Source: an uncultured Actinomycetota bacterium (GTDB taxonomy: Bacteria > Actinomycetota > Acidimicrobiia > Spongiisociales > UBA4744). Taken from it: a stretch of 64,000 nucleotides of DNA. Each line of letters begins with the position of its first letter. Within the stretch, counting starts at the first letter, position 1. A program made the position numbers and the translations under genes. Below the pieces are notes generated by a model. The model did no database searches, was not told the DNA's origin, and was given only the letters and a program-made list of their open reading frames with translations. The DNA lies in NCBI GenBank assembly GCA_963717135.1, contig CAVQVN010000006.1:75995-139994 (forward strand). The letters are read 5' to 3'. This document shows positions 20,292-58,326 of the stretch, in pieces.

Positions 20292-20293
20292 GG

Positions 20294-42906: not shown

Positions 42907-43506
42907 ATGACTGACCAGACCAATACCCGAACGAAACGACGCCTGCTCATGGGAAGCGGAATACTGGCCATCCCGGTGGTTGCGCTGGCTTGGTGGCTTG
43001 GTTCGCCATTGTTCCTGGATACCACCGTCGACGAGACCTTCCCCATCGTTGAAGCTGTCACACCGGACAGCAACGACCCAAGCGCCCAAGGCGATGGACC
43101 CGCGACCCCCGCAGTCCCGGCCCTCGGCACTTCTGAAGCTGAGGAAGCGGCAGCCGGACCCATCCAACTTCTCACAGGCGCATTTGTCGATGCCGACGCC
43201 GCCCATCGGGGCAGCGGATCGGCAACTATCTTCGAGCTCGAAGATGGTGCTCATGTGCTTCGTTTCGAGGACTTCGAGGTGACCAACGGTCCCGACCTAC
43301 ATGTTCTGCTCGTACCGACCGACGACCCAGTCGACCGGGAGTTCCTCTCCGACGTTGGGTATGAGAATCTCGGCAAGCTGAAGGGCAATGTGGGCAACCA
43401 GAACTACGACCTTCCTGAGGGGTTTGACCCGGACGGGTCATGGACGGTCGTGATCTACTGCGACCCGTTTCACGTCGTGTTCAGCACGGCCCGACTGTCC
43501 CGGTGA
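42907..43506 (+). CDS. DM13 domain-containing protein with N-terminal membrane anchor
   Basis: ATG 42907 after GGAGGAct. TM anchor LLMGSGILAIPVVALAWWL. DM13 signature GSGSATIFELEDGAHVLRFEDFEVTNGPDLHVLLV. Confidence 0.8.
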   Translation: MTDQTNTRTKRRLLMGSGILAIPVVALAWWLGSPLFLDTTVDETFPIVEAVTPDSNDPSAQGDGPATPAVPALGTSEAEEAAAGPIQLLTGAFVDADAAHRGSGSATIFELEDGAHVLRFEDFEVTNGPDLHVLLVPTDDPVDREFLSDVGYENLGKLKGNVGNQNYDLPEGFDPDGSWTVVIYCDPFHVVFSTARLSR

Positions 43507-43637: not shown

Positions 43638-44120
43638 TCAGGAATCTGGGGCGAAGCGGTCGTCCGCTTCACGGAGGCTTTGTGTCTCCGGGTCGTCCAT
43701 CCAGCCGTTGCGAGTGACGGCGAAGACGTCGAAGCGCTTCGAGTACGGCTTGATGTCGAGGAGGGGGGTGCCATCGAGGATATCCAATCCGTCTACGCGC
43801 AGAATCCGTCCTTCCCGGCGTAGCAAACGCACCGGGGAGATGCCGATTGGGTTGGGACGAGATGGCGCCCGGGTGGCAAAGAGGCCGCGCCGGCGAGTGT
43901 CGAGATAGGGTACGACCTTCATCTGCACCGGACCTACCCGATCGAACCACACGATCAGCCAGATCCGCTCGAACCCCTCCAGATCGTCGAGGCCTTCCGC
44001 AAATCTCTCGTACACCTCGACCGTGCCGACCGCCTCTCGCCCGGCACAAGCCGGTTGAACCGGTGTGCCCGACTGGGAGGAGAACCGGCTATGCACGATT
44101 CCTATCGGTTCAAGCTGCAC
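43638..44120 (-). CDS. tsaA: tRNA (adenine37-N6)-methyltransferase TsaA/YaeB family (TrmO)
   Basis: 160 aa, GTG start after GAAGGAAGGAAG. Motifs LEPIGIVHS, ...NPIGIS, DGTPLLDIKPY. Confidence 0.85.
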   Translation of the reverse strand: MQLEPIGIVHSRFSSQSGTPVQPACAGREAVGTVEVYERFAEGLDDLEGFERIWLIVWFDRVGPVQMKVVPYLDTRRRGLFATRAPSRPNPIGISPVRLLRREGRILRVDGLDILDGTPLLDIKPYSKRFDVFAVTRNGWMDDPETQSLREADDRFAPDS

Positions 44121-44212
44121 GATGGCTTCCTTCCTTCATCACGGGCTGTATTTGGTCTGGCGTACTGCCCATACCTCCCCGGCGGAGCAACTCTCTCCTC
44201 CATCGGGAGGCG

Positions 44213-44950
44213 TCATTTCCCAATCTCACGCCGTTGCATTGTCAGCAAGCGGACCCCTCGCATCTGCTGGAAGATCGCTCCCTCCGACAAACAACGCAGT
44301 GCCTGTTCCGCATCGGTCACACGAGTACCGGAGATCACGTCCACCCCATAGTCGAACAGAACCGGTGAAAGAGGCGCGGTAGGACCGAGAACCATCACCA
44401 AGCTGTCCGGCCGGCAGAGGCTCAACAGGTGTTCGATGGTGTGGTTGATGAAGGCACTGCCGGTTATGGCCACGACATCGGCTTGGCCAACCAGGGCGTC
44501 TCCCTCACCGGGCGTCACGTCTCCCAGTTGGGGCTCTTGCTCGATGACCCAGAGTTGGCCGGCGGCTTCGCGCAGCTCTGGCACGAACGGGAAGTGGCCG
44601 ACCAAGGCCACTCGCTTGGAGCGACCGTGCTCGATGAGGAACCGGCCGGCGTTGAGCTCGACGCATCGCGTTTCGTCGACCTCCAGCAGGGAGTTGACGG
44701 CGGCCAGACCGATGCCGGCCTCGAGCGTACTGTTGCTGAAAGCGAGCCGGACTAGGTCGGAGGCCGACCCGGTGGTCAACCGACCCGGTGTCTCTACCAG
44801 AGCCGAACCATGGAGGTGTTTTCCCGGCAATATGGTGGAGGCGAGACCGCAGAAACGGCTCCACACCGCCGTCCAGAAAGGTCCGATACGCACCTCGCGA
44901 ACAGGTGTATCCGCGTCCAGGCCGGCTATCAGGTCATCCAAGATTCTCAT
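44213..44950 (-). CDS. DUF4213/DUF364 family protein (Rossmann-like, putative metal-chelatase fold)
   Basis: ORF 44213..44983. Start chosen at ATG 44950 (MRILDDLIAGL..., family-typical N-terminus). Last gene of the Hdr-like operon. Confidence 0.7.
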   Translation of the reverse strand: MRILDDLIAGLDADTPVREVRIGPFWTAVWSRFCGLASTILPGKHLHGSALVETPGRLTTGSASDLVRLAFSNSTLEAGIGLAAVNSLLEVDETRCVELNAGRFLIEHGRSKRVALVGHFPFVPELREAAGQLWVIEQEPQLGDVTPGEGDALVGQADVVAITGSAFINHTIEHLLSLCRPDSLVMVLGPTAPLSPVLFDYGVDVISGTRVTDAEQALRCLSEGAIFQQMRGVRLLTMQRREIGK

Positions 44951-44979
44951 TGCAGCGACCGTATTCGTGCGACGCCACG

Positions 44980-45378
44980 TCAATGAAGCCGGTCGGTCTT
45001 GTTTGGCAGATCACCCCGGGCAAAGCGCTGGATTGCTTCGGAGACGCCATGCTCATCTGTGATGACGGTCTCGATGCCGACCGCCTGCATACTCTCGAAC
45101 GCACCCTGGCCCATACCGCCGGCGATGAGGAAGTCACAGTCACCGATGGTCTCCGCCATCGCCTGGTGTTTTGCCGGCGAACCATGACCGTAGCCGTGTG
45201 GTTGCCCCGGTTCCGCAAGCCCGTGATCATGGCCTGCAAACTCTTCGTGACCGACTTTGGGTCGGAGTTCCCGTGCCACCACCTCGCCAGCTTCCAGCGT
45301 CACCACCAGGTAGGAGCGGGCTCTGCCGAAGTGACGACTGACGGTCACGCCGTCGTTCGTGACCACGGCTATCTTCAC
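44980..45378 (-). CDS. NifX/NifB-like dinitrogenase FeMo-cofactor-binding family protein (Nitro_FeMo-Co fold)
   Basis: ORF 44980..45558 trimmed to GTG 45378 (VKIAVVTNDGVTVSRHFGRA...CDFLIAGGMGQGA...). Small MTH1175-like fold. Confidence 0.7.
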   Translation of the reverse strand: MKIAVVTNDGVTVSRHFGRARSYLVVTLEAGEVVARELRPKVGHEEFAGHDHGLAEPGQPHGYGHGSPAKHQAMAETIGDCDFLIAGGMGQGAFESMQAVGIETVITDEHGVSEAIQRFARGDLPNKTDRLH

Positions 45379-45410
45379 AACCCGCGTGCTTAGCCGTTCC
45401 CCGGGGACGC

Positions 45411-45662
45411 TCACAGCCGCTCCGCCAACCACAGGGCGGTCCACGCCGAGGGTGCCAGCAACGATGCCAGTTGATCGACGTCGAGCCCGTCGATGCGGTC
45501 CTGGGTTGCGCTTTCGGATATGTGCGAACAATCGCCTTCCCGGGAGGTGAGCCCGCACAGCGCCACATGACTGTGAGCGAGTTGGTGGGCCATCTCCCGC
45601 AGCGTGCCGGGATCAGCCTTGCGGAGCGCTTCCTCCACTTCGTGAAGCGTGACGACACGCAT
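45411..45662 (-). CDS. DUF1858 (hybrid-cluster-protein-associated redox disulfide-like) small protein
   Basis: 83 aa. ATG after GAGAGGAGTATCC. HVALCG and GLDVDQLASLL resemble DUF1858 LHCLGCP...GIDVDALVAEL. Confidence 0.6.
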   Translation of the reverse strand: MRVVTLHEVEEALRKADPGTLREMAHQLAHSHVALCGLTSREGDCSHISESATQDRIDGLDVDQLASLLAPSAWTALWLAERL

Positions 45663-45677
45663 GGATACTCCTCTCGT

Positions 45678-46703
45678 TTACGGTCGGACGGACAACGTTC
45701 CGACCACCGTTCTCTCTTGAGCGTGATCGACCGCCGCGGAAACCGGACAAAACGCTCTTTGGAGGAACACCGAGATGTCCTCCATCTCCAACGATCCGCC
45801 GGCTGCCTTCGACAATGAGGCCAGACAGATCGGACACATCGTGGTGACCTGCTTCCCACCAGTTGCCTTGAGCTGCTCGACCCGCTGCTGTCCAATGTCA
45901 TGGGCCTTCTTGGGGAAGAGCGCTTCGATAGGCCCACCACAGCAGTACGTGAGGTTTCTACTCGCCCGGGGTTCCCTCAGCGAATACCCGGCTCGCTCGA
46001 GCAATTGACGCGGTTGGTCAACGACACCTTCACTTCGGGCATACACACACGAGTCGTGAATAACTACATCCTCGCCGATCCGGCGCAAAGGCTCGGCGTC
46101 GGCGTCGGCCAACACCTCGAGGTAACTCTTGACCTCGATATCGAACCCGTCGATCACGGTCGGATACACGCTGCGCAGCATGTTGGTCGTGTGGGGATCG
46201 AGGGTTATGGCGTTCCGGACACCATGCTTCTTGAAGGTGGCGTATACCTTCTTGGCGTGCGCCGCCAGCGTGGCATCGACTCCCATGTCGTAGGCTAGAG
46301 CGCCGGCGTACAGATCGTCTTCGTAGAGATACCCGAACTCGATCCCAGCCTGCTGCAACAGACCGGCGATGTTCTTGAGCATCTGATCGTACTTCATGGT
46401 CTCGGATCGGGACGGTCGAGCTGCCAGCGACGACAGATTCACAAAACGGTTGGCGAACCTGCCGAGGAACACAAACCTGGTCAGGAAGGTGTCTTCGACC
46501 CGTTCCAGCAGTCCCACCATAGAGATGATGTATGGGAGCAGCTGGTACATGGCACCGGTGTAGAGCACCGTGGCTCCCCCTCGGGGAATACCCAAACCGT
46601 CCGCCCAACGGGTCGACTTCCTGGCCGACATTGGAAAGACCGAGCCCCTCTTGTTGAGGTTGTCGACCATCAGACCAACGATGTCACCGGTGGGCAAGGG
46701 CAT
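45678..46703 (-). CDS. hdrB: HdrB-like CCG-domain iron-sulfur protein
   Basis: ORF 45678..46820 trimmed to ATG 46703 (MPLPTGD) after GAGGAAGGAAC. Two CCG-type Cys-rich domains (ITLDPHTT.., DSCVYARS, YCCGGPIEALFPK, MCPICL). Confidence 0.75.
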   Translation of the reverse strand: MPLPTGDIVGLMVDNLNKRGSVFPMSARKSTRWADGLGIPRGGATVLYTGAMYQLLPYIISMVGLLERVEDTFLTRFVFLGRFANRFVNLSSLAARPSRSETMKYDQMLKNIAGLLQQAGIEFGYLYEDDLYAGALAYDMGVDATLAAHAKKVYATFKKHGVRNAITLDPHTTNMLRSVYPTVIDGFDIEVKSYLEVLADADAEPLRRIGEDVVIHDSCVYARSEGVVDQPRQLLERAGYSLREPRASRNLTYCCGGPIEALFPKKAHDIGQQRVEQLKATGGKQVTTMCPICLASLSKAAGGSLEMEDISVFLQRAFCPVSAAVDHAQERTVVGTLSVRP

Positions 46704-47037
46704 GTTGTTCCTTCCTCGCGGCGGGATCCGCATCCAGCCCGAATAGCTCGCGGTCGATGTAGCCGCGCAAAAAACGCACGTTCTCGGCAATGTGCACGTC
46801 GGCCGTGCAGTTCTCCTCACACAGTTTGCAAAGCAGGCATTGGAAGATCGACTCGGTCTGGTCGAGAACTTCTTCCTTCAACCCCAGCACCGTGTACCGG
46901 AAGAGCTTGCGGGGCATCAGATCGATCCCCAACGGGCATACCGCGCTGCAAACCCCGCAGTTCAAGCAGGCCCAGGCATTGAAATCCTCGGAGGTCGCTA
47001 CCTCTTCTGCGAATTCAAGATCGACCTTGCAAGTCAC
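46684..47037 (-). CDS. hdrC: HdrC-like 4Fe-4S dicluster ferredoxin
   Basis: 117 aa, GTG start. CLNCGVCSAVCP and CLLCKLCEENC motifs. 20-nt overlap with hdrB start. Confidence 0.75.
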   Translation of the reverse strand: MTCKVDLEFAEEVATSEDFNAWACLNCGVCSAVCPLGIDLMPRKLFRYTVLGLKEEVLDQTESIFQCLLCKLCEENCTADVHIAENVRFLRGYIDRELFGLDADPAARKEQHALAHR

Positions 47038-47285
47038 GTCGGTTGCTCCTTCTCGACCGCGGCGTAGGAGAAGTAGTCATCCTCATTGGGCTGGCCGCTC
47101 TCCTTTACCAAGCCGTACCGCCGGGCTGCCATAACCCAGTACATGACTTCGTGCGAAGGACACCCCATCGCCTGGGCGATCTCAGGTACCGTCTTCGGGC
47201 CATCCGCCAGAGCGGCCACAAGGCCGTTGCGCATGACCATTTCGTCTCGCATGACCTCGCGCGCTTCTCGCAATAGCTCAGACAT
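47034..47285 (-). CDS. small hypothetical protein between hdrA and hdrC
   Basis: ORF 47034..47306 trimmed to ATG 47285 (MSELLREAREVMRD), 8-nt overlap with hdrA stop. No recognised domain. Positionally equivalent to the 'hyp' gene of sHdr clusters. Confidence 0.5.
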   Translation of the reverse strand: MSELLREAREVMRDEMVMRNGLVAALADGPKTVPEIAQAMGCPSHEVMYWVMAARRYGLVKESGQPNEDDYFSYAAVEKEQPT

Positions 47286-48990
47286 GGACGACCCCCAACG
47301 CTTCAATCATCGCTCGAATCTGCTGGTCCGTGGAACCGCGCAACTGGAGCGCGCCTTGAGGACAAGAGGGAACGCAAGCCCCGCACCCTTTGCACATGGC
47401 CTCGCTCACCGCCGCTACCTCCTTGCCCTCAATGCGGACCTCGGCGATGGCGCCGTACGGACAGGCGCCGACACATACATCACACCAGGTGCATGCCTCC
47501 GGATCTACGGTGGCGATCAGCGGCTCCAGCTCGACATATCCTTTCTTCAAGAGGGCCGCACTCTTGGCGGTGGCCGCTAAGGCGGAAGCGACGCTTTCTG
47601 CCGAGCTCCGGGGAGCCTGGCAGGTGCCGGCAATGAACACTCCATCGATCACGGTCTCGACGGGACGGAGTTTCGGATGGATCTCCATGAAGAAGCCGTC
47701 CAGCCCGACCGGGAGTTTGAGCACATCGTTCAGGGCGTTATTGGCGCGCGGCTCCATGGCGGTCACCAGCACAACCAGATCGCTTTCGACTTCCAGCTCT
47801 TTGCCACCGGTCAGGACGTCCTTGACCGTCAATCGACAACCACCGTTGTGCAATGCGATCTGGGGAGGTTCCGAAGCGTCGAATTTGATGAAGACGGATC
47901 CCATCTGGCGGCTTTGCTGGAAGAGCGTCTCGTATTTGCCGTAGGTGCGAATATCTCGATACAAGTGGAACTGGTGCAGGGCGGGCGATCGCTCATGTGC
48001 CACCAGGGAGGCGTGCATCACGGCATTGCAGCAGTAGCGCGAACAGTATTGGTGGCCGTTGCCTTCGCAACGGTCACCTACGCAGTAGATGTAAGCGATG
48101 CTCGCCACTGGTCTGCCTTGGTATTCAAGTGGTCCCTCGGAACCGTCGAGGAGTTGTTTGAATTCGGGCAGGGTCAGCACCCGGTCGCTGCCGTAGCCGT
48201 ACTCCCCCGCGGCGGGCTGGTATACATCGAAACCGGTGGCCACGATGATGGCACCCACGTTGAGCGAGATGAGTTCGCCGGCCACTGCCAGAGTGACCGA
48301 GAAGTCGCCGATGGTCCCCGCCTTCTCGACCAGCTCAGCGTTCGTGTAGATCGTGATGTTGTCCCGCAGGTCGATGTCGTGAACCAGTTCGGCTACCAGT
48401 TCGTGCCCGACCCGATCATGCGGGTACATCTTGTTGAAACCGCCCACCCATCCCCCGACCCTGTCGGTCCGTTCGACTACAAAGGCGGAGATACCGAGGT
48501 CGGACAGGGCCAGGGCGGCCCGCAATCCGGCGATCCCGGCACCTACCACGAGTGCCCGCGGCACCGTGTCGATTCGGGTCTTTTCGAGTGGCTCGGTGAA
48601 CCGGGCTTTGGCGATCCCGGCCCGAACCATGGCAATGGCCTTCTCGGTGGCCGGCCCGGGCAGATCGGTGTGGGCCCACGAGCACTGCTCGCGTAGGTTC
48701 ACCTGAACGTACTGGTACGGGTTGAGTCCCGCCCGCTCCGCGACTCCTCGGAAGGTCATCAGGTGGAGGGTCGGCGAGCAGGAAGCGACGACAATGGCGT
48801 CCAGGTGTTGCTCCCGAATGTCGTCGATCATCTCCTGCTGGGCCGCGTCGGAGCAGGCGAACATGGTGGTCCTGGCGATCTCCACCGCGGCTTCACCGGC
48901 GACTTCGCTCCGGACCCGCTCGCAGTCGACGTAGTCAGAGATGTTTCCGCCGCAGTAGCAGATGTACACGCCGATCCGCCGGTCGTTCAT
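47278..48990 (-). CDS. hdrA: HdrA-like FAD/iron-sulfur flavoprotein with N-terminal MvhD/FlpD-like domain
   Basis: 570 aa. N-terminus IGVYICYCGGNISDYVD...TMFACSD...AIVVASCS parallels MvhD ILGFLCNWCSYAGAD...MCSGR...VLVSGCH. FAD dinucleotide motif ALVVGAGIAGL. C-terminal 2x[4Fe-4S] CTWCDVCVGACP / CKGCGACVPSCP. Confidence 0.8.
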   Translation of the reverse strand: MNDRRIGVYICYCGGNISDYVDCERVRSEVAGEAAVEIARTTMFACSDAAQQEMIDDIREQHLDAIVVASCSPTLHLMTFRGVAERAGLNPYQYVQVNLREQCSWAHTDLPGPATEKAIAMVRAGIAKARFTEPLEKTRIDTVPRALVVGAGIAGLRAALALSDLGISAFVVERTDRVGGWVGGFNKMYPHDRVGHELVAELVHDIDLRDNITIYTNAELVEKAGTIGDFSVTLAVAGELISLNVGAIIVATGFDVYQPAAGEYGYGSDRVLTLPEFKQLLDGSEGPLEYQGRPVASIAYIYCVGDRCEGNGHQYCSRYCCNAVMHASLVAHERSPALHQFHLYRDIRTYGKYETLFQQSRQMGSVFIKFDASEPPQIALHNGGCRLTVKDVLTGGKELEVESDLVVLVTAMEPRANNALNDVLKLPVGLDGFFMEIHPKLRPVETVIDGVFIAGTCQAPRSSAESVASALAATAKSAALLKKGYVELEPLIATVDPEACTWCDVCVGACPYGAIAEVRIEGKEVAAVSEAMCKGCGACVPSCPQGALQLRGSTDQQIRAMIEALGVVHV

Positions 48991-51692
48991 ATCCGCACCC
49001 TTTCGACATAGGCACCGGCCAGCGCTGCCGCGGCCGCCGACTGAAGGATCGTGTCCGGAATATCCATGACGGCCGCCGCGGAGCCGGCTGCGAAAACTCC
49101 TTCGATACTCGTCCGGGCCGGACTGTGATCCTCGTCGATCTCCTTCACGAAGTTATGGGCATCAGCCTCCAACCCGCCGTTGGAGAAGAGACGCATTGCG
49201 TCCTGATTGGGAAGCATCCCTACCGAGAGGACAACGAGGTCGTGTTCGGCCTCAACGACACCTCCATCGCCGGCGATGTTCTCGTAGCGCACGACGAGAT
49301 TGCCGTTTTCCGCTCCGCTGATATCGGCAACTTTGCCCTTCACGAAGTAGGTCCCCATGGCTTTGGACTGCTGATAGAACTCTTCGAAGCCTTTTCCAAA
49401 GGCTCGAACGTCGATGTAGTAGATGGTCACGTCTGCCATCGGCAGCGCTCCCATGATCAGCTGGGCTTGCTTGACGGTATACATGCAGCACACGCGGGAG
49501 CAGAGCTCATTCCCGACCTGACAATCACGCGATCCGGCGCACAGAATGTAGGCAATGTTGTCGGGAATCTTCCCATCCGAGGGCCGCAGCACGGAGTTGT
49601 AGGGCCTGGTCGGCGACAAGAGCCGATCCATCTGCATGGCAGTAATGACGTTGGGGAACCGGCCGTAGCCGTATTGCGGTTTGCGGAGCGGTTCGAAGAG
49701 TTCGAATCCGGTCGAGACGACCACCGATCCCACATTGAGGGTGAACGCTTCGTCGCGCAAGCCCAGGTCGATGGCATGGCCCGGGCAGACGTTGAGACAC
49801 TGGTGACACTCCGAACATCCGCCGCAGTCGAGACAGCGTCCGGCGCCGGATCGCGCTTCCTCCTCGGAAAGGGGCAGCTCGACCTCTGCGAAATCGCCGA
49901 TCCGTTCCGGGGCGGGGCGTTCCGCAGTCTGCGCTCCGTTGAGGTAGCGGTAGGTTCGCTGCCGGGCAAGCACGTCCTTTCTTTCCACCACCGGGAGGCG
50001 TTGGTCGTATTCGCCGGCGTTGAGATCCTCGCCATTGAGGAAACGGTCGATGAAGTAGGCCGCCCTCCGGCCCTGGCCGAGAGCGTCGGTGATCGAACTG
50101 GGACCGGTCACCAGGTCTCCTCCGGCGAACACATGCGGGACGGTGGTCTGCAGCGTTCCGGGATCAGCCTGAACCCGACCGCTCCGGGTGACACCTAATC
50201 CATCTTTCCAACCGACCGGCGTGGGAACCAGGCCGACGGCAATGATGGCGAAGTCCACGTCGGCATTCGATTCGGACCCCTCCACGGGGAGCGGTCGCCG
50301 CCGACCGGAGTCGTCGGGTTCGCCGAGCCGCATCCCGATCGACTCAGCCCGGACCAGTTTGCCGTCTTGGCCGAAGAACCGGACCGGGACCCGGAGGTAC
50401 TCGACCTCGATCCCTTCGGCCAGGGCGGCCTCGATCTCCCAGTCGAACGCCGGCATCTCGGCCCGGCTGCGTCGATATTGAATCGTCACTCGAGCGGCGC
50501 CCAACCGACGGGCTACCCGGGCGGAGTCGATCGCGACATTGCCCCCTCCCACCACCAACACCCGACGACCGGTGAGGTCAGGATGGTTCCCCTGGTTGAC
50601 GGTGCGCAAGAACTCGAGAGATCTGACCACGCCATCGAGGTCTTCGCCCTCGATGCCCATTGCCCGGTCTGTAGCAGCCCCGCAGGCGACGAACACCGCC
50701 TCGAACCCTGCCGTCTCGAGATCTTTCAAGTTGTCGATTTGCCGGCCGGTCTGTAGGTCGACACCGAGGGAAGTGATGTTCTTGATGTCCCGATCCACGA
50801 CATCCTTGGGCAATCGATAGGAGGGGATCGCATAGCGAAGCATTCCGCCCGGCTGGTCGTCCGCCTCGAAGATGGTGACGAGATACCCCTGCCGGGCCAG
50901 GTCGTAGGCAGCCGCCAGGCCGGCGGGTCCGGATCCCACCACCGCCACCTTCTTGTCGAGAAGGTGGTCGGGAGGCCCCTGTTTTGGTTCCGGGTATCGG
51001 GCGTAGTACTCGTCGGCCACGAACCGCTTCAGTCTCCGGATCGGGACTGCTCCCTCGAGTTCATCCCGGGTGCATTGGTCCTCGCAGGGGGCATAGCATG
51101 CCCTTCCCAGAGACCCGGGAATGGGGACAGCCTCGAGGATCAGGTCCATGGCCTCCTCGTACAGACCACTCCGCACCAAGGACACGTACCCGTGCGCCTT
51201 GATCCCCGCCGGGCACGCATAGGTACAAGGCGAACTGCCGGCCCGGTCGATCACGGCCTTCTTGGGGACCGCCTGCGAGTAAGGGATGTAGGCGGCCCGA
51301 CGCGCCACCAGGTCGAAGTTGAATTGATCGGGAATGGCCACCGTGCAGGCCACCTCACACTGAGAGCATCCGGTACAGCGATCTGGGTCAACGAAGGTCG
51401 CCTTCCTATTGATATCGACCTGGAAGGTTCCGTCCGAGCTTCGTTCGATTCTGGTCACCTCAGCGGAGGTGAGCGTCTCGATTCGGGGATGGTGGAACGT
51501 GGCGGCCATCTTCGGGGTGGCGATGCAACTAGCACAGTCGAGAGTGGGGAATACCTTGCTCAGCAGGATCATCGTGCCGCCGATCGATGCTTCCTTTTCG
51601 ACGAGCACGACGGAATAGCCCATATCACCGAGGCTAAGAGCCGATTCCATACCCGCCGTTCCACCCCCGACTACCAGAGCGTCGTAATCCAT
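48987..51692 (-). CDS. HdrL-like large flavoprotein: HdrA with inserted GltD/NfnB-type NAD(P)H-binding oxidoreductase module
   Basis: ORF 48987..51707 trimmed to ATG 51692 (MDYDALVVGGGTAG). HdrA N-domain + inserted ferredoxin CTGCSQCEVAC. GltD-like region (SPCTYACPAG...RACYAPCEDQC, VAVVGSGPAGLAAA, second NAD site VLVVGGGNVAID). Ferredoxin CLDCGGCSECHQC. HdrA C-domain (CAGSRDC..CSRVCC). ATGA overlap with hdrA. Confidence 0.8.
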   Translation of the reverse strand: MDYDALVVGGGTAGMESALSLGDMGYSVVLVEKEASIGGTMILLSKVFPTLDCASCIATPKMAATFHHPRIETLTSAEVTRIERSSDGTFQVDINRKATFVDPDRCTGCSQCEVACTVAIPDQFNFDLVARRAAYIPYSQAVPKKAVIDRAGSSPCTYACPAGIKAHGYVSLVRSGLYEEAMDLILEAVPIPGSLGRACYAPCEDQCTRDELEGAVPIRRLKRFVADEYYARYPEPKQGPPDHLLDKKVAVVGSGPAGLAAAYDLARQGYLVTIFEADDQPGGMLRYAIPSYRLPKDVVDRDIKNITSLGVDLQTGRQIDNLKDLETAGFEAVFVACGAATDRAMGIEGEDLDGVVRSLEFLRTVNQGNHPDLTGRRVLVVGGGNVAIDSARVARRLGAARVTIQYRRSRAEMPAFDWEIEAALAEGIEVEYLRVPVRFFGQDGKLVRAESIGMRLGEPDDSGRRRPLPVEGSESNADVDFAIIAVGLVPTPVGWKDGLGVTRSGRVQADPGTLQTTVPHVFAGGDLVTGPSSITDALGQGRRAAYFIDRFLNGEDLNAGEYDQRLPVVERKDVLARQRTYRYLNGAQTAERPAPERIGDFAEVELPLSEEEARSGAGRCLDCGGCSECHQCLNVCPGHAIDLGLRDEAFTLNVGSVVVSTGFELFEPLRKPQYGYGRFPNVITAMQMDRLLSPTRPYNSVLRPSDGKIPDNIAYILCAGSRDCQVGNELCSRVCCMYTVKQAQLIMGALPMADVTIYYIDVRAFGKGFEEFYQQSKAMGTYFVKGKVADISGAENGNLVVRYENIAGDGGVVEAEHDLVVLSVGMLPNQDAMRLFSNGGLEADAHNFVKEIDEDHSPARTSIEGVFAAGSAAAVMDIPDTILQSAAAAALAGAYVERVRI

Positions 51693-51693
51693 C

Positions 51694-52128
51694 TCAACCA
51701 ACCTCACTCATCGCTTCGAGAGCAATCAACGCCTCGGAGAACTGGGCCATGTGGCGTGCAAATGGTTCTGCACACACCGAGCAAATGGCTGCCATTTTCA
51801 AGCGTTCTGGAGGAATACCTCTCTCTCTCATCAGATCCTGAGCAACGGCGGTGATGTGCGCCGTGCGATCGGTGCAATCGGCCAAATACGGGCAATCGCT
51901 GCCGTCGGCGGCAATGAAGACCCCATCAAACCCTCGGTCGATCGCGAACAGGATCCAATCCGGGCGGATTCCGCTCGAGCATGAAACCGCGATACAACTG
52001 ACCGAGGGTGAGTAGTGCAGATGAGTGCTGCCCGCCAGGTCGATGCCGATGTCAGAGATCGTGGACGTCGAGAACACCAGGATACGTGGGCGATCTCCGG
52101 CCGCGGCGGGGTCCAGGTCCGCCGGCAT
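51694..52128 (-). CDS. mvhD: MvhD/FlpD-like protein (methyl-viologen-reducing hydrogenase delta subunit family) with variant Cys pattern
   Basis: 144 aa. ILVFSTSTISDIGIDLAG...IAVSCSSGIRPDWILFAIDRGFDGVFIAADGSDCPY aligns to MvhD, but the N-terminal CxxC pair is replaced by STST. Confidence 0.75.
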   Translation of the reverse strand: MPADLDPAAAGDRPRILVFSTSTISDIGIDLAGSTHLHYSPSVSCIAVSCSSGIRPDWILFAIDRGFDGVFIAADGSDCPYLADCTDRTAHITAVAQDLMRERGIPPERLKMAAICSVCAEPFARHMAQFSEALIALEAMSEVG

Positions 52129-52130: not shown

Positions 52131-52388
52131 TTATTTGGCTCGTTTGACGAAGATCCGCCAGTACCCGGCTTCCGCGATGGTCCCCAGGTATTCATGACCG
52201 ATCTTGGCCGCCCACCGGGGAAGGTCGTTGCTTGTGCTCACATCGGACGACCGGACCTCCATGACACCGCCAACCGGCACCGTCGTGATTCCTCGCTTGG
52301 CCTCCAGGAGTGGACCCGGACAGGCGACCCCGCGAGCGTCGATCTCTTTGTCGGGAGTGAGCGTGGCGAGTTCTTCAGTGGTAATCAT
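52131..52388 (-). CDS. tusA: TusA-like sulfurtransferase
   Basis: 85 aa with CPxP motif (DARGVACPGPLLEAK). Confidence 0.85.
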   Translation of the reverse strand: MITTEELATLTPDKEIDARGVACPGPLLEAKRGITTVPVGGVMEVRSSDVSTSNDLPRWAAKIGHEYLGTIAEAGYWRIFVKRAK

Positions 52389-52420: not shown

Positions 52421-52777
52421 CTAGAAAGTGAGGACGACATCCGCCTCCTCGGCTTCGGCCACGAACGTGGCAACCCCCTGGCACTCGACCCCGTCGATGA
52501 GATCCGCTTCGGTACAGTCGACGATCGGGAAAGCTGCGGAGCAGGCCAGCAACCTGGCGCCGCCCTTCTTGACGGTGTCGATGAACTCAGGCAATGTTTT
52601 CGGCGCCCCATCGAGCTTGATCACATCGGCTCCGTCCTTGAGCACGATGTTGAGACCACTCATCGTGAAGAACAGAACGAGTTCCATATCGAGCGCCAGG
52701 GCCCCCGATCCCAACATGAAAGGGGGAAATGCTTTCTCGGGTTCATCCGATCCGCAAAAGACGACCATTTTTGACAT
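52421..52777 (-). CDS. DsrE/DsrF-like sulfur relay family protein
   Basis: ORF 52421..52813 trimmed to ATG 52777 (MSKMVVFCGSDEPEKAFPPF...) after AAAGGAG. Conserved Cys in MVVFCGSD typical of DsrE-type active-site. Confidence 0.75.
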   Translation of the reverse strand: MSKMVVFCGSDEPEKAFPPFMLGSGALALDMELVLFFTMSGLNIVLKDGADVIKLDGAPKTLPEFIDTVKKGGARLLACSAAFPIVDCTEADLIDGVECQGVATFVAEAEEADVVLTF

Positions 52778-52927: not shown

Positions 52928-53629
52928 ATGACCACGGGAATTCTGACCAGAACCCGCCACATCGTGGTGCTAGACAATGACCCGGACATGCGCAGGACGA
53001 TTGGCGCCATCCTGGAGGAAGACGGATTCCGCGTGACACCAACCGGCGATGGAGACGCCCTCCTCGCCATGCTCCCCGAGCATCACCCCGATCTAGTCAT
53101 CCTCGAGATGGTGCTTCCCGGGATGCCCGGTCTCGAGGTCCTCCGCCGATTGCAGGAGCATGGGCGTGTCCCGGCCATTGTGGTCAGCAGCAAGAGCTCC
53201 GAGACTGATCGGATCGTCGGTCTGGAAATGGGAGCGGATGACTACCTGGCCAAACCGTTCTCTCCCCGGGAACTACTGGCGCGGGCGCATGCGGTGCTCC
53301 GTCGCACCGAGCACGAATGCCCGTGCGACACCCTCGAATACGACGGTCTCCGCCTCGACCTGACTTGTCGCGACGTCGTCATCGACGGTGATCTCATAGA
53401 ACTCACTTCGCTCGAATTCGATCTGCTGGCTTTCATGGCCGGCTCCCCCCGGCAGGTCTTCTCCCGGGAAATGCTCCTGGACCGGGTCTGGGGGTCGTCG
53501 AGCGAGTGGCAAACGGCCGCCACCGTTAGCGAGCACATCCACCGACTGCGCCGCAAGATCGAACGGGACCCAGCCAATCCTCGATGGATCCAGACGCTGC
53601 GTGGAGCCGGGTATCGCTTCGTGCCCTGA
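52928..53629 (+). CDS. OmpR/PhoB family response regulator (orphan)
   Basis: 233 aa. REC + winged-helix (LRLDLTCRDVVIDGDLIELTSLEFDLLAFMA...). Divergent from the Hdr-like operon. No kinase adjacent. Confidence 0.88.
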   Translation: MTTGILTRTRHIVVLDNDPDMRRTIGAILEEDGFRVTPTGDGDALLAMLPEHHPDLVILEMVLPGMPGLEVLRRLQEHGRVPAIVVSSKSSETDRIVGLEMGADDYLAKPFSPRELLARAHAVLRRTEHECPCDTLEYDGLRLDLTCRDVVIDGDLIELTSLEFDLLAFMAGSPRQVFSREMLLDRVWGSSSEWQTAATVSEHIHRLRRKIERDPANPRWIQTLRGAGYRFVP

Positions 53630-53734: not shown

Positions 53735-54199
53735 GTGACGATGACCAAATGGGCGCCATTCAGCGCATTCACGGAACTCGAGCAAGAAATGCACACGCTG
53801 CTTGATCACTTCGGTGGACGCCCCTGGCTGGAAGGCTTCGGCTGGCGGCCGGATACCGACATCTCCCGGGAGGGCTCGACGTTGGTGGTCGAAATGGACC
53901 TTCCCGGCATGGACCCGTTTCATGATCTCCACATCGATCTGGTCGACAACGTGCTCAGGATCGAAGGCGAGCGATGCGAGTCGCGACCCGTCAAGGAGGC
54001 CGACCGCTACATCCACGAACGCCGATGCGGATGCTTCCACCGCAGCGTGATGCTCCCGGACGGTGTGAAGCCTGAGACAGTCAGCGCCCACTACGAGAAC
54101 GGGACGCTGACGGTACGAATACCGATGCCTGATGTTTCGGTAGCCGGAAGCCAACGTCACCAGATACCCATAAGGATCTCTGAACGGATAGGTATTTGA
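53735..54199 (+). CDS. Hsp20/alpha-crystallin family small heat-shock protein
   Basis: 154 aa. ACD pattern (WRPDTDISREGSTLVVEMDLPG..., AHYENGTLTVRIP). Confidence 0.85.
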   Translation: MTMTKWAPFSAFTELEQEMHTLLDHFGGRPWLEGFGWRPDTDISREGSTLVVEMDLPGMDPFHDLHIDLVDNVLRIEGERCESRPVKEADRYIHERRCGCFHRSVMLPDGVKPETVSAHYENGTLTVRIPMPDVSVAGSQRHQIPIRISERIGI

Positions 54200-54675: not shown

Positions 54676-55527
54676 ATGTCCTTGATCGGGCTGCAGTACT
54701 ACCAAAGGCCTACCACACTCGAATCGGCCCTTGAACAGGTTCGAGCAAGTGGTCCCGGAGCCCGGTTCATGGCTGCGGGTACGGACCTGGTCTTGCACGG
54801 TGGCGACGAGATCACCACCCTCATCGACCTATCGGACCTGAACCTAGCCTATGTCGGAGCGGAAAATCACGACATCGCCATCGGGGCCATGACGACCCTG
54901 ACCGACCTGATGGAGCACCCCATTTTGGCCGGCTATCTCGGGGGGATTGTGCCCACGGTGATCCGTCAGGTCGGGTCTCCGCTGCTCCGCAACCTGGCGA
55001 CGGTCGGGGGAAGCCTGGTCCGCCGCCAGCCATGGTCGGACGTCGTCCCGCTATTCCTGGCACTGGGCGCCACCGTCCGCCACTTCGACGGAACAAAACA
55101 TGAGGAAACTCTGGCCGAATTCTACGGAAGGCCCGGACACTCTCCCGGAGACATCCTGACCGAGATTGTGCTGCCGGCCCCGAAACCTCTTGCCGTTGCG
55201 GCGTTTGAAAAATTCACCCGGTCCGCGGTCGACGTCGCTCTGCTCAACTGCGCGGTGTTCATCCGTACCAAACACGATCAATGTGTTGAAGCGCGGGTCT
55301 ATGTCGGCGGTACGCCTCGGTCGGCAGCCGCGGTCCCCGCGGTCGTCGAGATGCTGCAAGGGAGGGAGCTTGACGACGAGGTTATCTCGGAAGCCGCCCG
55401 GATCGCCGCCGCCGAGGTGCCGACCGGCGATGACCGTCGGGCTTCTGCCGTCTACCGATCCCACCTGGTTGGGGTGGGGATCGGACGCTGCCTCCGCCGG
55501 ATAGCGAGGGAGATGGAGGCGGCATGA
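54676..55527 (+). CDS. molybdenum hydroxylase FAD-binding subunit (CoxM/XdhB-like)
   Basis: 283 aa. FAD-binding-5 motifs (AAGTDLV, ...ATVGGSL). Confidence 0.85.
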   Translation: MSLIGLQYYQRPTTLESALEQVRASGPGARFMAAGTDLVLHGGDEITTLIDLSDLNLAYVGAENHDIAIGAMTTLTDLMEHPILAGYLGGIVPTVIRQVGSPLLRNLATVGGSLVRRQPWSDVVPLFLALGATVRHFDGTKHEETLAEFYGRPGHSPGDILTEIVLPAPKPLAVAAFEKFTRSAVDVALLNCAVFIRTKHDQCVEARVYVGGTPRSAAAVPAVVEMLQGRELDDEVISEAARIAAAEVPTGDDRRASAVYRSHLVGVGIGRCLRRIAREMEAA

Positions 55528-55991
55528 AGATAGCGTTGACCATCAATAGTGTTTCTCGAACGTTGGAGTCACCGCTGGGCGAAACGCTGCTGGATCTCCT
55601 CCGCCGGGAGAACTACAAGAGTGTCAAACTCGGCTGCAACACGGGAGACTGCGGGACTTGTGCTGTCCTGTTGGACGGTCGGGCCGTCAACGCCTGCATG
55701 CTTCTGGCGGCGGCCTGCGCCGGAAGGTCGATCGTCACCGTCGAAGGTCTTGAAGCTGATGGTCGCCTACATCCGCTTCAAGAGGCTTCGCTGGATTCCG
55801 GTGCGGTGCAGTGCGGCTTCTGCACTCCGGGCATGATCGTGGCGGCAATTGATCTTCTCGACAAGAACCCCGACCCCTCGGAGCAGGAAATTCGGGAAGG
55901 CTTGGCCGGCAACTTGTGCCGCTGCACCGGCTATGTGAAGCAGGTAGCAGCCGTCCGGATGGCCAGCGGGAGGGGGAACGCCGATGCTTGA
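55524..55991 (+). CDS. molybdenum hydroxylase (2Fe-2S) iron-sulfur subunit (CoxS-like)
   Basis: 155 aa. Plant-type CNTGDCGTC and second CGFCTPGM / CRCTGY motifs. Confidence 0.88.
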
Positions 55992-58326
55992 TCGCACAGA
56001 GTTTGAGGTGGTCGGCCACAACGAGCGGAAGGTGGACGGTTACTCGCTGGTGACCGGGAAGCCGGTCTTCGCCGGGGACGTCGACCTACCCGATTCCCTG
56101 TATGTGAGATTGCTGTACAGCCCTCATGCGCATGCGCGGATCGTCTCTATCGACACAAGCCGGGCGGAAGCTCTCCCCGGGGTTGTCCTGGTACTTACCC
56201 ATCTGAACACCCCTCCCCGGCGCTACACCACGGCCGGACAGGGGTATCCGGAACCGTCCCCCTACGACGCCCGGATGTTCGATACCAAGGTGCGGTTTGT
56301 CGGCGACCGGGTGGCCGCCGTAGCAGCCGAGAGCCCGGCCGCCGCCGCGGAGGCCATCAAGCTGATCGACGTCGAGTATGAGACCCTGCCCGCGGTCATG
56401 TCGATCGACGAGGCACAGGACGACGGTGCTCCTGTGATCCATGACGAAGACGGCGCAATCGGGGTTTTGGACGCGGCCCGCAACCTCGTGGCCGAGGTCC
56501 TGGTAGCAGTCGGTGACACCGAAGCCGGGTTCGCTGAGTCCGACCAAATCGTCGAAACAACCTGCGAAACTCATTACGCCCAGCACACTCCTCTCGAGCC
56601 GCACGTCGTCCAGTCGTACCTCGACCACAGCAACCGCCTGGTCCTACTCACCTCCACCCAGGTGCCGTTCCACGCCCGGCGAATCATTGCCCGGCTACTC
56701 GACCTGCCCGTCGCCCGGGTGCGAGTGATCAAGCCGCGGGTCGGTGGAGCTTTCGGAGTCAAACAGGAGGTCCTGCTCGAGGATGTCGCGGCGTTGGTTG
56801 CCTTGCGGACCGGGCGGGCGGCCCGCGTGGAACTGACTCGCCCGGAGGAGTTCTACGCCTCCCGGACCCGTCACCCGATGCGAGTGACGGTGAAGCTCGG
56901 TGCCGCCTCAGACGGCATACTCAAGGCACTTGACATGGAGGTCGTCTCCAACACCGGAGCGTACGGAACGCACGGCCTCACCGTGATGTCGAACGCCGGT
57001 TCGAAGACGCTACCGCTCTACAACAAAGCTCCCAACGTCCGCTTCGACGGCAAAGCCGTCTACACCAACCTCCCGGTCGGCGGCGCCTATCGCGGCTACG
57101 GAGCCACTCAGGGGTACTTCGCCCTGGAAACTGCCATGGATGAAATGGCCGACCGCCTGGCCCTCAACCCGCTTGAACTGCGGCGGCGCAACCACATCCG
57201 CCAGGGTGAAACGTCCCCGATTTTTGAGGAGATCGGGGAAGGCAAGAAGGGCGTCGAACAAACGGTCAATAGCTGTGAACTGGCGCGTTGTATCGAGCTG
57301 GGTGCCGCCCGGATCGGCTGGCACGCCAAACGCGGCACCCGGCGCCGGGAAGGTTCGTGGGTCTACGGGATGGGTATGTCGATCCACATGCAGGGATCGG
57401 GAATCCCGGCTGTGGACATGGGAGCCGCCACCATCAAGATGAATGACGACGGCTCGTTCAACCTGCTTGTCGGAGCCACTGATCTCGGAACCGGCTCCGA
57501 TACGATCCTGGGACAGATCGCGGCCGAGACGCTGGGGGTACCGCTCGACAAGATCATCGTGTACTCGAGCGACACCGATATGACTCCGTTCGATGTCGGC
57601 GCGTACGCTTCATCGACGACCTACGTTTCGGGCAATGCCGTTCGGCGAGCCGCCGAGCAGACCCGCCGTCAGATTATCGAGGTCGCCGCCGCGATGCTGA
57701 ACGTCGATCCAGATGGCCTCAGGGTCGCGAGCCAAATGGTCACCACACCGGACGGACGGACTGTCGGCTTGGCCGAGGTAGGCATCCGTAGCCTGTACGG
57801 CGCCGACCAATTGCAGATCGGGGCGACTGCTTCGTTCGTTGGCGAGGAGTCTCCTCCCCCCTTCCTGGCCAGCTTTGCCGAGGCAGCCGTCGATGTCGAA
57901 ACCGGGCAGATCAGGGTTACCGATTATGTAGCCGCCGTCGACTGCGGCGTGGCGATCAATCCACAGGCGGCCGAAGGTCAGATAGAGGGGGCCATTGCCA
58001 ACGGAATCGGCTATGCCCTCACCGAGGAGATGGTGTTCAGCTCCCACGGCCGGCTGCGCAATCCGACCTTCTTCGACTACAAGATCCCGGCTGCCCCGGA
58101 TCTCCCCGACATCAAGGTGATACTGGTCGACTCGTACGAACCGACCGGACCGATGGGAGCCAAATCAGTTGCCGAAATCGGCATCAACGCGCCGATTCCA
58201 ACCATAGCCAACGCCATCTTTGACGCGGTTGGTGTTCGATTGAGACAAACGCCTTTCACGGCGGAGCGGGTGCTGGCAGCTCTGGCGGAGAAGGCCTCGG
58301 CCGCCTCCGCGATGGTTGTGGAATAG
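55984..58326 (+). CDS. molybdopterin-binding large subunit of a xanthine dehydrogenase/aldehyde oxidoreductase family enzyme
   Basis: 780 aa. GGAFG, AYRGYGATQG motifs. Lacks the CODH form-I AYxCSFR signature, so not a CO dehydrogenase. Confidence 0.85.
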   Translation: MLDRTEFEVVGHNERKVDGYSLVTGKPVFAGDVDLPDSLYVRLLYSPHAHARIVSIDTSRAEALPGVVLVLTHLNTPPRRYTTAGQGYPEPSPYDARMFDTKVRFVGDRVAAVAAESPAAAAEAIKLIDVEYETLPAVMSIDEAQDDGAPVIHDEDGAIGVLDAARNLVAEVLVAVGDTEAGFAESDQIVETTCETHYAQHTPLEPHVVQSYLDHSNRLVLLTSTQVPFHARRIIARLLDLPVARVRVIKPRVGGAFGVKQEVLLEDVAALVALRTGRAARVELTRPEEFYASRTRHPMRVTVKLGAASDGILKALDMEVVSNTGAYGTHGLTVMSNAGSKTLPLYNKAPNVRFDGKAVYTNLPVGGAYRGYGATQGYFALETAMDEMADRLALNPLELRRRNHIRQGETSPIFEEIGEGKKGVEQTVNSCELARCIELGAARIGWHAKRGTRRREGSWVYGMGMSIHMQGSGIPAVDMGAATIKMNDDGSFNLLVGATDLGTGSDTILGQIAAETLGVPLDKIIVYSSDTDMTPFDVGAYASSTTYVSGNAVRRAAEQTRRQIIEVAAAMLNVDPDGLRVASQMVTTPDGRTVGLAEVGIRSLYGADQLQIGATASFVGEESPPPFLASFAEAAVDVETGQIRVTDYVAAVDCGVAINPQAAEGQIEGAIANGIGYALTEEMVFSSHGRLRNPTFFDYKIPAAPDLPDIKVILVDSYEPTGPMGAKSVAEIGINAPIPTIANAIFDAVGVRLRQTPFTAERVLAALAEKASAASAMVVE

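Follow-up and report, generated by a model that had tools for sequence, protein, structure and literature searches.

HdrL was named in 2009 in Desulfobacterium autotrophicum HRM2, which encodes three such proteins (HdrL1-3) and, at its locus VIII, carries hdrL and hdrA in tandem together with hdrCB and mvhD (PMC2702500). Later work with Syntrophobacter fumaroxidans detected its HdrABC/HdrL proteins (Sfum_0819-0824) only with sulfate (PMC5947623), and HdrA and HdrL have also been reported beside fdhAB in Desulfurivibrio (PMC12142623). The function of HdrL in D. autotrophicum and S. fumaroxidans was inferred from genome context and proteomics only (PMC2702500, PMC5947623). The gene considered here, hdrL, lies on a 64,000-nucleotide stretch of DNA (the window) from an uncultured Actinomycetota bacterium of the class Acidimicrobiia (contig CAVQVN010000006.1, positions 75,995 to 139,994 of the forward strand), within a minus-strand operon of abutting or overlapping genes in the order dsrE-tusA-mvhD-hdrL-hdrA'-wHTH-hdrC-hdrB', where hdrA' is a second hdrA and wHTH a gene for a small winged-helix protein. 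Its product resembles the HdrL of D. autotrophicum and S. fumaroxidans in being a large HdrA, of the heterodisulfide reductase (Hdr) family, with an internal glutamate-synthase-like NAD(P)H-binding region, and in having mvhD adjacent and hdrA with hdrB/hdrC in tandem. The described loci differ from that of the window in an FdhB-like Fe-S protein, in the dsrABC genes of HdrL1 and in some selenoproteins; their descriptions, through which alone they were compared, do not mention tusA, dsrE or a small winged-helix gene.

A second set of relatives comes from archaea. HdrA9-11 of the anaerobic methanotrophic (ANME) lineage ANME-1 (Chadwick et al., 2022; PMC9012536) and the "type III HdrA" described in 2025 (PMC12054007) carry an NfnB/GltD-like insertion of about 500 aa at the same position, in the inserted ferredoxin domain of HdrA, and keep Lys409; for these proteins it has been proposed that electrons come from NAD(P)H or go to it, and that two flavins may bifurcate. 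Archaeal type III HdrA has a GxGxxG motif, read as NADH-type, and occurs in clusters with mvhADG or several hdrA genes, whereas HdrL of the window has GxGxxA plus YRR. Unlike the ANME and type III proteins, HdrL of the window also has Asp for Glu356, is encoded in a tusA/dsrE cluster and belongs to a bacterium with a cytochrome bd oxidase. As a kind of protein the fusion is already known (PMC2702500, PMC9012536, PMC12054007), and the gene in the window is another instance of it.

The overall picture that we favor, with a probability of roughly 55%, is one in which the products of the operon assemble into a soluble heterodisulfide-reductase-type complex of several subunits, with the hdrL product as the subunit at which NADPH enters. 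That HdrL is an NAD(P)H-entry subunit of an Hdr-type complex at all is very likely. Electron bifurcation by this complex is a tentative proposal, to which we give slightly less than even odds, and the same holds for a substrate borne by TusA or DsrE.

The HdrL fusion and its NfnB-like insert

An uninterrupted open reading frame (ORF) with a GTG start occupies 48987-51707 of the minus strand, and the ATG at 51692 gives a protein of 901 aa. The product of 48987-51692 is almost certainly an HdrL-type fusion, an assignment on which Pfam, NCBIfam, PDB alignments and AlphaFold2 with Foldseek agree and which fits the published architectures (PMC2702500, PMC9012536, PMC12054007). A sequence-only reading of this DNA had proposed an HdrA split by a complete GltD/NfnB-like NAD(P)H module, and the domain search bore this out by mapping NfnB-like residues 151-623 inside HdrA. 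Profile searches confirmed the order HdrA, NfnB/GltD, HdrA: Pfam matched FAD_oxidored/GIDA at residues 4-41, Fer4 at 99-118, Fer4_20 at 153-230 (6.7e-18) and Pyr_redox_2 at 247-541 (3.4e-50), while NCBIfam matched PRK12771 at 148-641 (1.7e-143) and HdrA/HdrA2 models at 620-897. A sequence search of the PDB matched residues 154-632 to NfnABC-NfnA (9N5U), its C. saccharolyticus homologue (9BOV), StnC (8OH5) and NfnB (4YLF), and residues 623-893 to HdrA (5ODC).

With the insert left out, HdrL aligns to HdrA of M. thermolithotrophicus (5odc_A) so that residues 4-150 correspond to HdrA 145-290 and residues 622-893 to HdrA 289-562. These boundaries place the insert precisely where the first CxxCxxCxxxC half of the HdrA inserted ferredoxin domain would give way to the second. 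What had earlier been taken for an extra ferredoxin behind the insert is really the second half of this domain of HdrA itself (C626, C629, C632 and C636, the last followed by Pro). HdrL thus covers the equivalent of HdrA from 145 to about 562 and lacks both of the terminal domains of HdrA, the Cys domain at the N-terminus and the ferredoxin domain at the C-terminus. Conservation of the HdrA-derived parts among 65 relatives is high. The N-terminal part of the flavin adenine dinucleotide (FAD) domain carries a GGGTAG and a DCASC motif, the latter with C53 and C56, the counterparts of Cys194 and Cys197 of M. thermolithotrophicus HdrA, which are kept in all 65. Equally invariant are the Cys of both ferredoxin halves (C106, C109, C112 and C116 in the first; C626, C629, C632 and C636 in the second) and K741, the counterpart of Lys409. 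The [4Fe-4S] motif C718/C731/C735/C736 aligns with HdrA Cys386/399/403/404 of 5odc_A; of these four, C718, C731 and C736 are kept in all 65 relatives, and C735 is kept in 59 and is Gly in the other 6. Published work tells bifurcating HdrA from the non-bifurcating kind by Lys409 and Glu356 (PMC12054007).

The insert has a [4Fe-4S] region (C156, C160, C199, C203 and C207), an FAD site (GSGPAG, 253-258), an NADPH-type site (GGGNVA, 382-387, with YRR at 406-408) and a linker, and it ends with a relocated NfnB N-terminal segment that closes in RCLDC (C620 and C623). Structure prediction of HdrL alone agreed with this assignment: the AlphaFold2 model, made with 24 homologues, had a mean predicted local distance difference test score of 77.8, with values above 90 across most of the insert, and Foldseek superposed it on T. 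maritima NfnB (4ylf_B) with a target-normalised template modeling (TM) score of 0.80, a root mean square deviation of 2.7 A and 42% identity. In its native order, the insert aligns to NfnB 45-462 only and to positions 29-109 only of the Fer4_20 profile. The segment PAPERIGDFAEVELPLSEEEARSGAGRCLDC (HdrL 594-623, just ahead of the second ferredoxin half) resembles the NfnB N-terminus PESRRRNFEEVALGYTLEEALEEAQRCLQC. When residues 586-623 were placed in front of 152-560, the Fer4_20 match widened to profile positions 2-109 and rose from 69 to 81 bits, NfnB aligned in one contiguous piece over 13-462 with an increase from 291 to 316 bits, and the NfnI and GltD scores went up as well. At the level of its sequence, then, the insert is a circularly permuted NfnB and a complete module.

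The two Cys of the relocated RCLxC, C620 and C623, supply half of the first four-Cys motif of NfnB. The cluster that NfnB holds with C39/C42/C47/C51 is, judged from the alignment, built in HdrL from C620/C623 together with C156/C160, and we take it to be the distal, ferredoxin-facing cluster of the NfnAB structure. C626, with which the ligands of the ferredoxin-domain cluster begin, follows C623 by only three residues, so that the NfnB module appears to be hard-wired, cluster to cluster, into HdrA. The Cys and GxGxx(G/A) motifs of the insert are conserved among relatives, and the GxGxxA plus YRR pattern of the nucleotide site is the same as in the NADPH-binding NfnB of T. maritima. In 16/65 relatives, YRR is replaced by (S/C)LE, a NADH-like signature, which suggests a switch to NADH inside the same orthologous cluster. 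The loci with this replacement are L017, L018, L019, L021, L028, L045, L047, L050, L053, L063, L065, L066, L072, L074, L075 and L076.

Much like the insert, NfnB of NfnAB (T. maritima 4YLF, P. furiosus 5JCA) has two [4Fe-4S] motifs, FAD and NADPH sites, and an Arg187, whose HdrL counterpart R293 is invariant among 24 homologues. The insert differs in having no NfnA partner, in being embedded in another protein and in carrying the equivalent of NfnB residues 13-44 after that of residue 462; the canonical order of free-standing NfnB, RCLxC..PCxxxCP at the N-terminus, is not shared by it. The best matches in sequence and fold (about 330-363 bits) are StnC (8OH5) and NfnABC-NfnA (9N5U, 9BOV), which are natively permuted, with PCxxxCP first and RCLxCG-C last, and this explains their rank. 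What follows the module is different: in HdrL it is HdrA, and in StnC and NfnABC-NfnA it is a formate-dehydrogenase-like domain. The latter two also have NuoE/NuoF-like partner subunits, StnAB/NfnBC. A plain glutamate-synthase small subunit was rejected as the identity of the insert, since NfnB, StnC and NfnABC-NfnA score 363-291 bits and GltD 185. The gltB gene was not found among the window ORFs scanned, which comprise about 58 of roughly 66 predicted or listed ORFs, some of them without a Pfam match.

The sequence-only reading had named an assembly chimera as a finding that would refute it, and an artificial joining of hdrA to gltD/nfnB during assembly or annotation is the one rival for which nothing was found in favor. 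The exact 901-aa protein, with the same neighbors, recurs on a metagenome contig in ENA and, independently, in a Logan assembly made from another run. Database matches of about 900 aa form at least 120 clusters with 60-100% identity over 98-100% of the query, and these best matches come from Acidimicrobiia, Zixibacteria, Desulfofundulus, Acidobacteria, Latescibacterota and others; the closest named homologue among the matches listed is 70% identical and belongs to a metagenome-assembled genome of Acidimicrobiia. HdrL relatives are encoded in at least 586 genome stretches from about ten phyla, a lower bound obtained from a species-representative set with one genome per species. Moreover, the GC content at third codon positions (GC3) of the hdrL ORF is flat, at 0.71-0.78 in each 100-codon block, the cluster-binding Cys that flank both domain junctions are invariant in relatives (n=65), and the architecture has been published three times (PMC2702500, PMC9012536, PMC12054007). 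A chimera is thereby refuted as far as sequence data reach, and its residual probability is negligible. The same numbers bear on the earlier statement that HdrL has been described in only a few anaerobes, which holds for the literature; in nature, the at least 586 stretches from about ten phyla and the cytochrome bd oxidase of the window speak against it.

HdrA' and the conserved gene cluster

The earlier reading had also pointed to a second, conventional HdrA next to hdrL. This second HdrA and mvhD are indeed both present (Table 1), and MvhD and HdrCB are upheld as the likely partners, but HdrA' is far from conventional. Its start overlaps the hdrL stop. Its alignment to HdrA of M. marburgensis covers only 9-242 and 323-651: the Cys domain at the N-terminus, the FAD domain and the 2x[4Fe-4S] ferredoxin domain at the C-terminus are all there, and what is missing is precisely the 80-residue inserted ferredoxin domain. 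Both Cys of the DCxxC motif, equivalent to Cys194 and Cys197, are replaced (V193 and E196). The position of Glu356 is taken by K278, with Lys in 41/62 relatives and otherwise Arg, and that of Lys409 by H326, with His in 48/62 and Lys in none. HdrL and HdrA' are thus each missing the domains that the other retains, and the simplest reading of this complementary loss is that the two form an obligate heterodimer in place of the HdrA homodimer. On the same simplest reading, the HdrA-type flavin site of HdrL appears to be intact, and a canonical bifurcation-type flavin would be held in HdrL only and not in HdrA'. In ANME, too, HdrA paralogues have been proposed to pair as heterodimers (PMC9012536).

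Table 1. Positions in the window of the HdrL segments and of the genes that make up the operon
Feature	Position	Strand	Basis
HdrL residues 1-95, N-terminal part of the HdrA thioredoxin-reductase-like FAD domain	51408..51692	-	alignment to 5odc_A 145-240; Pfam FAD_oxidored/GIDA 4-41
HdrL residues 96-150, first half of the HdrA inserted ferredoxin domain	51243..51407	-	5odc_A ~241-290; Pfam Fer4 99-118
HdrL residues 151-623, circularly permuted NfnB/GltD-like module	49824..51242	-	Pfam Fer4_20, Pyr_redox_2; PDB alignments 9n5u_A, 9bov_A, 8oh5_C, 4ylf_B; Foldseek; re-permutation
HdrL residues 624-645, second half of the HdrA inserted ferredoxin domain	49758..49823	-	5odc_A 289-311
HdrL residues 646-901 and stop, C-terminal part of the HdrA FAD domain	48987..49757	-	5odc_A 312-562
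dsrE-like (118 aa), DsrE/DsrE2-family sulfurtransferase, first operon gene	52421..52777	-	Pfam DrsE_2 and DsrE; NCBIfam DsrE2 below cutoff; gene call in L081
tusA (85 aa), sulfur carrier, CPGP active-site Cys	52131..52388	-	Pfam TusA 2.6e-18
mvhD (144 aa), [2Fe-2S] electron-transfer subunit, FlpD/MvhD family	51694..52128	-	Pfam FlpD 3.1e-23
hdrA' (570 aa)	47278..48990	-	alignment to 8rvu_a 9-242 and 323-651; conservation in 62 relatives
Small winged-helix protein (83 aa) between hdrA' and hdrC	47034..47285	-	conservation pattern; weak winged-helix matches
hdrC-like ferredoxin (117 aa), two CxxCxxCxxxC motifs	46684..47037	-	translation; weak or faint Fer4 matches
hdrB-like HdrB' (341 aa), single intact CCG domain (C..CC..CxxC)	45678..46703	-	Pfam CCG 2.4e-11, one stretch; translation

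The TusA motif DARGxxCPGP is conserved at 90% or more, with the Cys of CPGP kept, and the Cys positions of MvhD are conserved in 78 homologues; mvhD ends 2 nt ahead of the hdrL start. The N-terminal pseudo-CCG half of HdrB' has no Cys, and in comparison with 9ojn_A the CPHC of that partner is LDPH here. An NfnA-like partner (FNR-like, [2Fe-2S], second FAD, NAD+ site) is absent from the operon, from the 22-kb locus L081 and from the scanned window ORFs, and no second pyridine-nucleotide subunit of any of the kinds looked for in these places (NfnA, StnAB or NuoF-like) is encoded near hdrL. Neither a lipoate-binding protein gene nor a second hdrCB set occurs among the operon genes or their conserved neighbors. 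As for the small winged-helix protein, it was considered as a DsrC-like thiol substrate and rejected, since its sole Cys is not conserved and profile searches give weak winged-helix matches.

To survey conservation, the operon proteins were searched by tblastn against the best 80 of the at least 586 related stretches. These 80 loci span Acidobacteriota, Actinomycetota, Chloroflexota, Gemmatimonadota, Bacillota (including Desulfofundulus thermobenzoicus), Bacteroidota, Alpha- and Gammaproteobacteria, "delta proteobacteria", Kiritimatiellota and Thermoplasmata, about ten phyla, and they share the order tusA-mvhD-hdrL-hdrA'-wHTH, except that a dsrE-like gene lies among tusA, mvhD and hdrL in about nine of them. 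Where enough upstream DNA was available, tusA and mvhD were present in every locus (76/76), with tusA directly upstream of mvhD or nearly so; where enough downstream DNA was available, hdrA' was present in 72/72 and the small winged-helix gene in 68/72. A DsrE-family gene was found near the cluster in 49 of the 60 well-covered loci. Farther downstream, 22/62 loci resemble the window in having hdrC and a one-CCG hdrB. Around the 80 loci there were no conserved partners beyond this core set among those looked for (hydrogenase, formate dehydrogenase, rhodanese, transporter and lipoate-binding protein).

In other loci the place of hdrCB is taken by a gene for a QmoC-like protein of about 390 aa, in which a di-cluster ferredoxin resembling HdrC is joined to a membrane domain of the NarI/HdrE type (L003, L004, L008, L010, L034-L064 and others; for example, L003:12561-13805). 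Its replacement of hdrCB implies a quinone-coupled version of the same HdrL/HdrA' module. An ArsR-type regulator was also seen upstream of tusA in about 14 related loci; the ArsR-type family includes regulators that sense sulfane sulfur.

Several better-known Hdr-type systems share parts of this layout. The Qmo systems of sulfate reducers and sulfur oxidisers (QmoABC and QmoAB-HdrCB) likewise have two different HdrA paralogues, an MvhD-like element and either QmoC or soluble HdrCB as the outlet; unlike the present locus, they have no NfnB insertion and are linked to aprAB, whereas the locus of the window is linked to tusA and no aprAB was found among its scanned ORFs. In the sHdr system of sulfur-oxidising organisms, an Hdr-type complex is similarly served by TusA/DsrE carriers, and a small "hyp" gene after hdrA can be likened to the 83-aa winged-helix gene by its place alone. 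That system differs in its lipoate-binding protein LbpA, its DsrE3, its hdrC1B1A-hyp-hdrC2B2 arrangement with two HdrCB sets (one here) and an sHdrA without ferredoxin domains. FlxABCD-HdrABC is also a NADH-fed Hdr with an MvhD-like FlxD, although the NADH enters through separate Flx subunits and there is no fused module. Finally, HdrA of methanogen-type HdrABC-MvhAGD has the N-terminal Cys and C-terminal ferredoxin domains in one polypeptide, while here both are in HdrA' and not in HdrL; it works with the [NiFe]-hydrogenase MvhAG and a two-CCG HdrB, whereas no hydrogenase was found among the scanned window ORFs and HdrB' has one CCG.

Proposed function and rival explanations

In the picture that we favor, a heterodimer of HdrL and HdrA' would replace the HdrA homodimer, and TusA and DsrE would deliver a sulfur substrate in the form of a persulfide or mixed disulfide. 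NADPH would reduce the NfnB-type FAD. The HdrA-type FAD of HdrL would then receive the electrons by way of the two [4Fe-4S] clusters of the NfnB-like module and both clusters of the ferredoxin domain. From this second flavin, one route would lead by HdrA' and HdrC to HdrB', whose single noncubane cluster would reduce the disulfide or persulfide carried by TusA/DsrE; in relatives, this route may reach quinone by way of QmoC. A second route would run through the C-terminal ferredoxin domain of HdrA', MvhD or both to ferredoxin or another low-potential acceptor, which would amount to electron bifurcation. In the reverse direction, the same complex could conceivably work by confurcation and yield NADPH.

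This picture draws on the Lys409 counterpart, present in 65/65 HdrL and never Lys in HdrA', and on Cys194 and Cys197, kept in HdrL and lost in HdrA'. It also draws on the start and stop codons of the operon, which overlap or abut, on a gene order kept in 80 loci and on the retained catalytic Cys of TusA. In S. fumaroxidans, the homologous HdrABC/HdrL proteins were abundant only with sulfate present (PMC5947623), which counts in its favor, and other authors have independently put forward the inserted module as the point of NAD(P)H entry, both in ANME HdrA9-11 (PMC9012536) and in type III HdrA (PMC12054007).

A number of observations weigh on the other side. The counterpart of Glu356 in HdrL is Asp689, and among 65 relatives the residue is Asp in 62 and Glu in 3. 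There is no ferredoxin gene inside the operon, and the role of MvhD without a hydrogenase is unexplained. HdrB' is too divergent for a sequence match to methanogen HdrB and has one CCG cluster; methanogenic HdrB needs two. Moreover, in 36/62 loci the QmoC-like membrane subunit stands in place of hdrCB, so that there is no CCG site, and yet tusA is still kept; since most relatives combine these features, HdrB' may not be the site at which TusA acts. The assignment of the substrate is inferred from gene neighborhood alone. With a cytochrome bd oxidase present and no dsr or apr genes found in the scanned window, a role in sulfate respiration is unsupported here. The sequence-only reading had called HdrL functionally uncharacterised, and this stands: the literature holds no biochemistry on HdrL-type proteins and no biochemical or structural evidence on any HdrL complex (including PMC2702500, PMC5947623, PMC9012536 and PMC12054007).

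Some of these observations would be expected of a simpler enzyme, a linear, non-bifurcating NAD(P)H:disulfide/persulfide (or NAD(P)H:quinone) oxidoreductase with no involvement of ferredoxin, which we regard as unlikely although it is the more serious of the rivals. The module would work as it does in glutamate synthase, dihydropyrimidine dehydrogenase and SudA, both electrons of NADPH would travel down the cluster chain, and the HdrA flavin would be a two-electron/one-electron converter. GltD-type modules are in fact mostly non-bifurcating, the structures of glutamate synthase and dihydropyrimidine dehydrogenase match the insert, and neither a ferredoxin gene nor an NfnA-like partner was found in the operon or the scanned window ORFs. 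The Asp at the Glu356 position points the same way, and ferredoxin-coupled bifurcation is less expected in a host that has an oxidase and among carriers many of which are soil aerobes. A linear chain, however, leaves the invariance of the Lys409 and Cys197 counterparts in HdrL unaccounted for, and it would make both the complete surface ferredoxin domain of HdrA' and the retained MvhD superfluous. The best matches of the insert are, furthermore, the bifurcating NfnABC-NfnA, StnC and NfnB rather than GltD.

It is less probable still, and in our judgment improbable, that the complex is a redox balancer with two bifurcating flavins back to back, a Nfn/Stn-like transhydrogenase fused to Hdr, in which the low-potential electron of one flavin would be consumed at the other and TusA/DsrE would serve cofactor or cluster biogenesis or regulation and would not be substrates. 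The distal cluster of NfnB, the ferredoxin-reducing end in NfnAB, is joined straight to the HdrA inserted ferredoxin domain, itself described as a ferredoxin-reducing site (PMC12054007), and two bifurcation sites have been suggested for the ANME HdrA-NfnB fusions (PMC9012536). The invariance of R293, the counterpart of NfnB Arg187, in 24 homologues could be added to these points, but this residue is not known as a diagnostic of bifurcation. Such an enzyme would also call for a second pyridine-nucleotide site, and there is none, with no NfnA, StnAB or NuoF-like subunit found nearby; the near-universal tusA at the head of the cluster and the frequent dsrE are hard to call a coincidence.

Beyond the complex of the window, it is conceivable that tusA-mvhD-hdrL-hdrA'-wHTH-(hdrCB or qmoC-like)-dsrE represents an undescribed, phylogenetically widespread, bifurcating sulfur-reducing enzyme system, an extension that we consider speculative and, taken as a whole, doubtful. 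In such a system, an obligate HdrL/HdrA' heterodimer would couple NAD(P)H with flavin-based bifurcation, and either a soluble CCG site or the quinone pool could serve interchangeably as its high-potential outlet. The sulfur bound to TusA/DsrE, such as a persulfide or thiosulfonate, is difficult to reduce, and the system would drive this reaction or, in reverse, would pass electrons from sulfane sulfur into NADPH; its carriers would be many bacteria and Thermoplasmata without Dsr, Apr or sHdr pathways.

Significance and surroundings in the window

In the literature searched, no description was found of TusA with an MvhD/HdrA/QmoC/HdrL cluster, and the alternation between HdrCB and QmoC-like outlets, the complementary degeneration of the partner HdrA and the permuted cluster seam were likewise not met there; the reviews of Appel et al. 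(2021) and Pereira et al. (2011) lay outside that literature and may hold any of them. Priority for the tusA linkage, the outlet alternation, the degeneration of HdrA' or the permuted seam is therefore not claimed. Within the electron-bifurcating Hdr family, few uncharacterised proteins are as common as those of the HdrL type, this subfamily alone being present in at least 586 stretches, and the context described here predicts several properties for them. These are the subunits (MvhD, an HdrL/HdrA' heterodimer, and HdrC with HdrB' or a QmoC-like protein), the nucleotide (NADPH here, with a NADH-type motif in a quarter of relatives), and the permuted cluster seam as the point at which the two modules would be wired together; sulfur on TusA/DsrE is offered as a candidate substrate. 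If the link to sulfur is true, a NAD(P)H-coupled route would be added to cytoplasmic sulfur trafficking in soil and sediment phyla that are rarely counted as sulfur metabolisers.

The rest of the scanned window is mostly housekeeping, signalling or unassigned. Hydrogenase, dsrAB, aprAB and nfnA were not found among the scanned ORFs, and no tRNAs were found in the window. Subunits I and II of a cytochrome bd oxidase are encoded at 61091-63573 (+), which makes it probable that the host is no strict anaerobe, unlike the organisms of the first HdrL descriptions.

Directly downstream of hdrB' and on the same strand are four genes (43638-45662, -), which encode an 83-aa ORF product without a Pfam match (45411-45662, -), a NifX/NafY-like Nitro_FeMo-Co protein (44980-45414, -), a DUF4213/DUF364 "metal chelation" protein (44213-44950, -) and a TrmO-family protein (43638-44120, -). 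These genes are not conserved beside the cluster in the 80 loci, where the sole matches were NifX-like near L021, on both sides in L042, and TrmO near L062. They could be local cofactor-assembly helpers or could be unrelated.

On the other side, an OmpR-type response regulator (52928-53629, +) is divergent from the operon and is followed by an HSP20 gene (53735-54199, +). Next come a CoxM/CoxS/CoxL-like molybdenum hydroxylase, with FAD, [2Fe-2S] and molybdenum cofactor subunits (54676-58326, +), and then SufB/D and radical-SAM genes (58411-60935, +). The large subunit of the molybdenum hydroxylase is split into two gene calls in L081, so that a frameshift or a sequence difference between assemblies is possible. 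Two large ORFs with coding-like GC3 have no Pfam match at E <= 1e-4 (28232-31672, +, 1146 aa; 41644-43254, -, 536 aa). About 35-40 kb from the operon are genes for a TauE/SafE-family (sulfite exporter-like) membrane protein (11104-11820, +) and a Cys/Met-metabolism enzyme dependent on pyridoxal phosphate (13028-14347, -). The GC content reaches 0.67-0.70 at 16001-22000, over arginine-biosynthesis genes (argC/J/B/D-like), compared with about 0.62 elsewhere.

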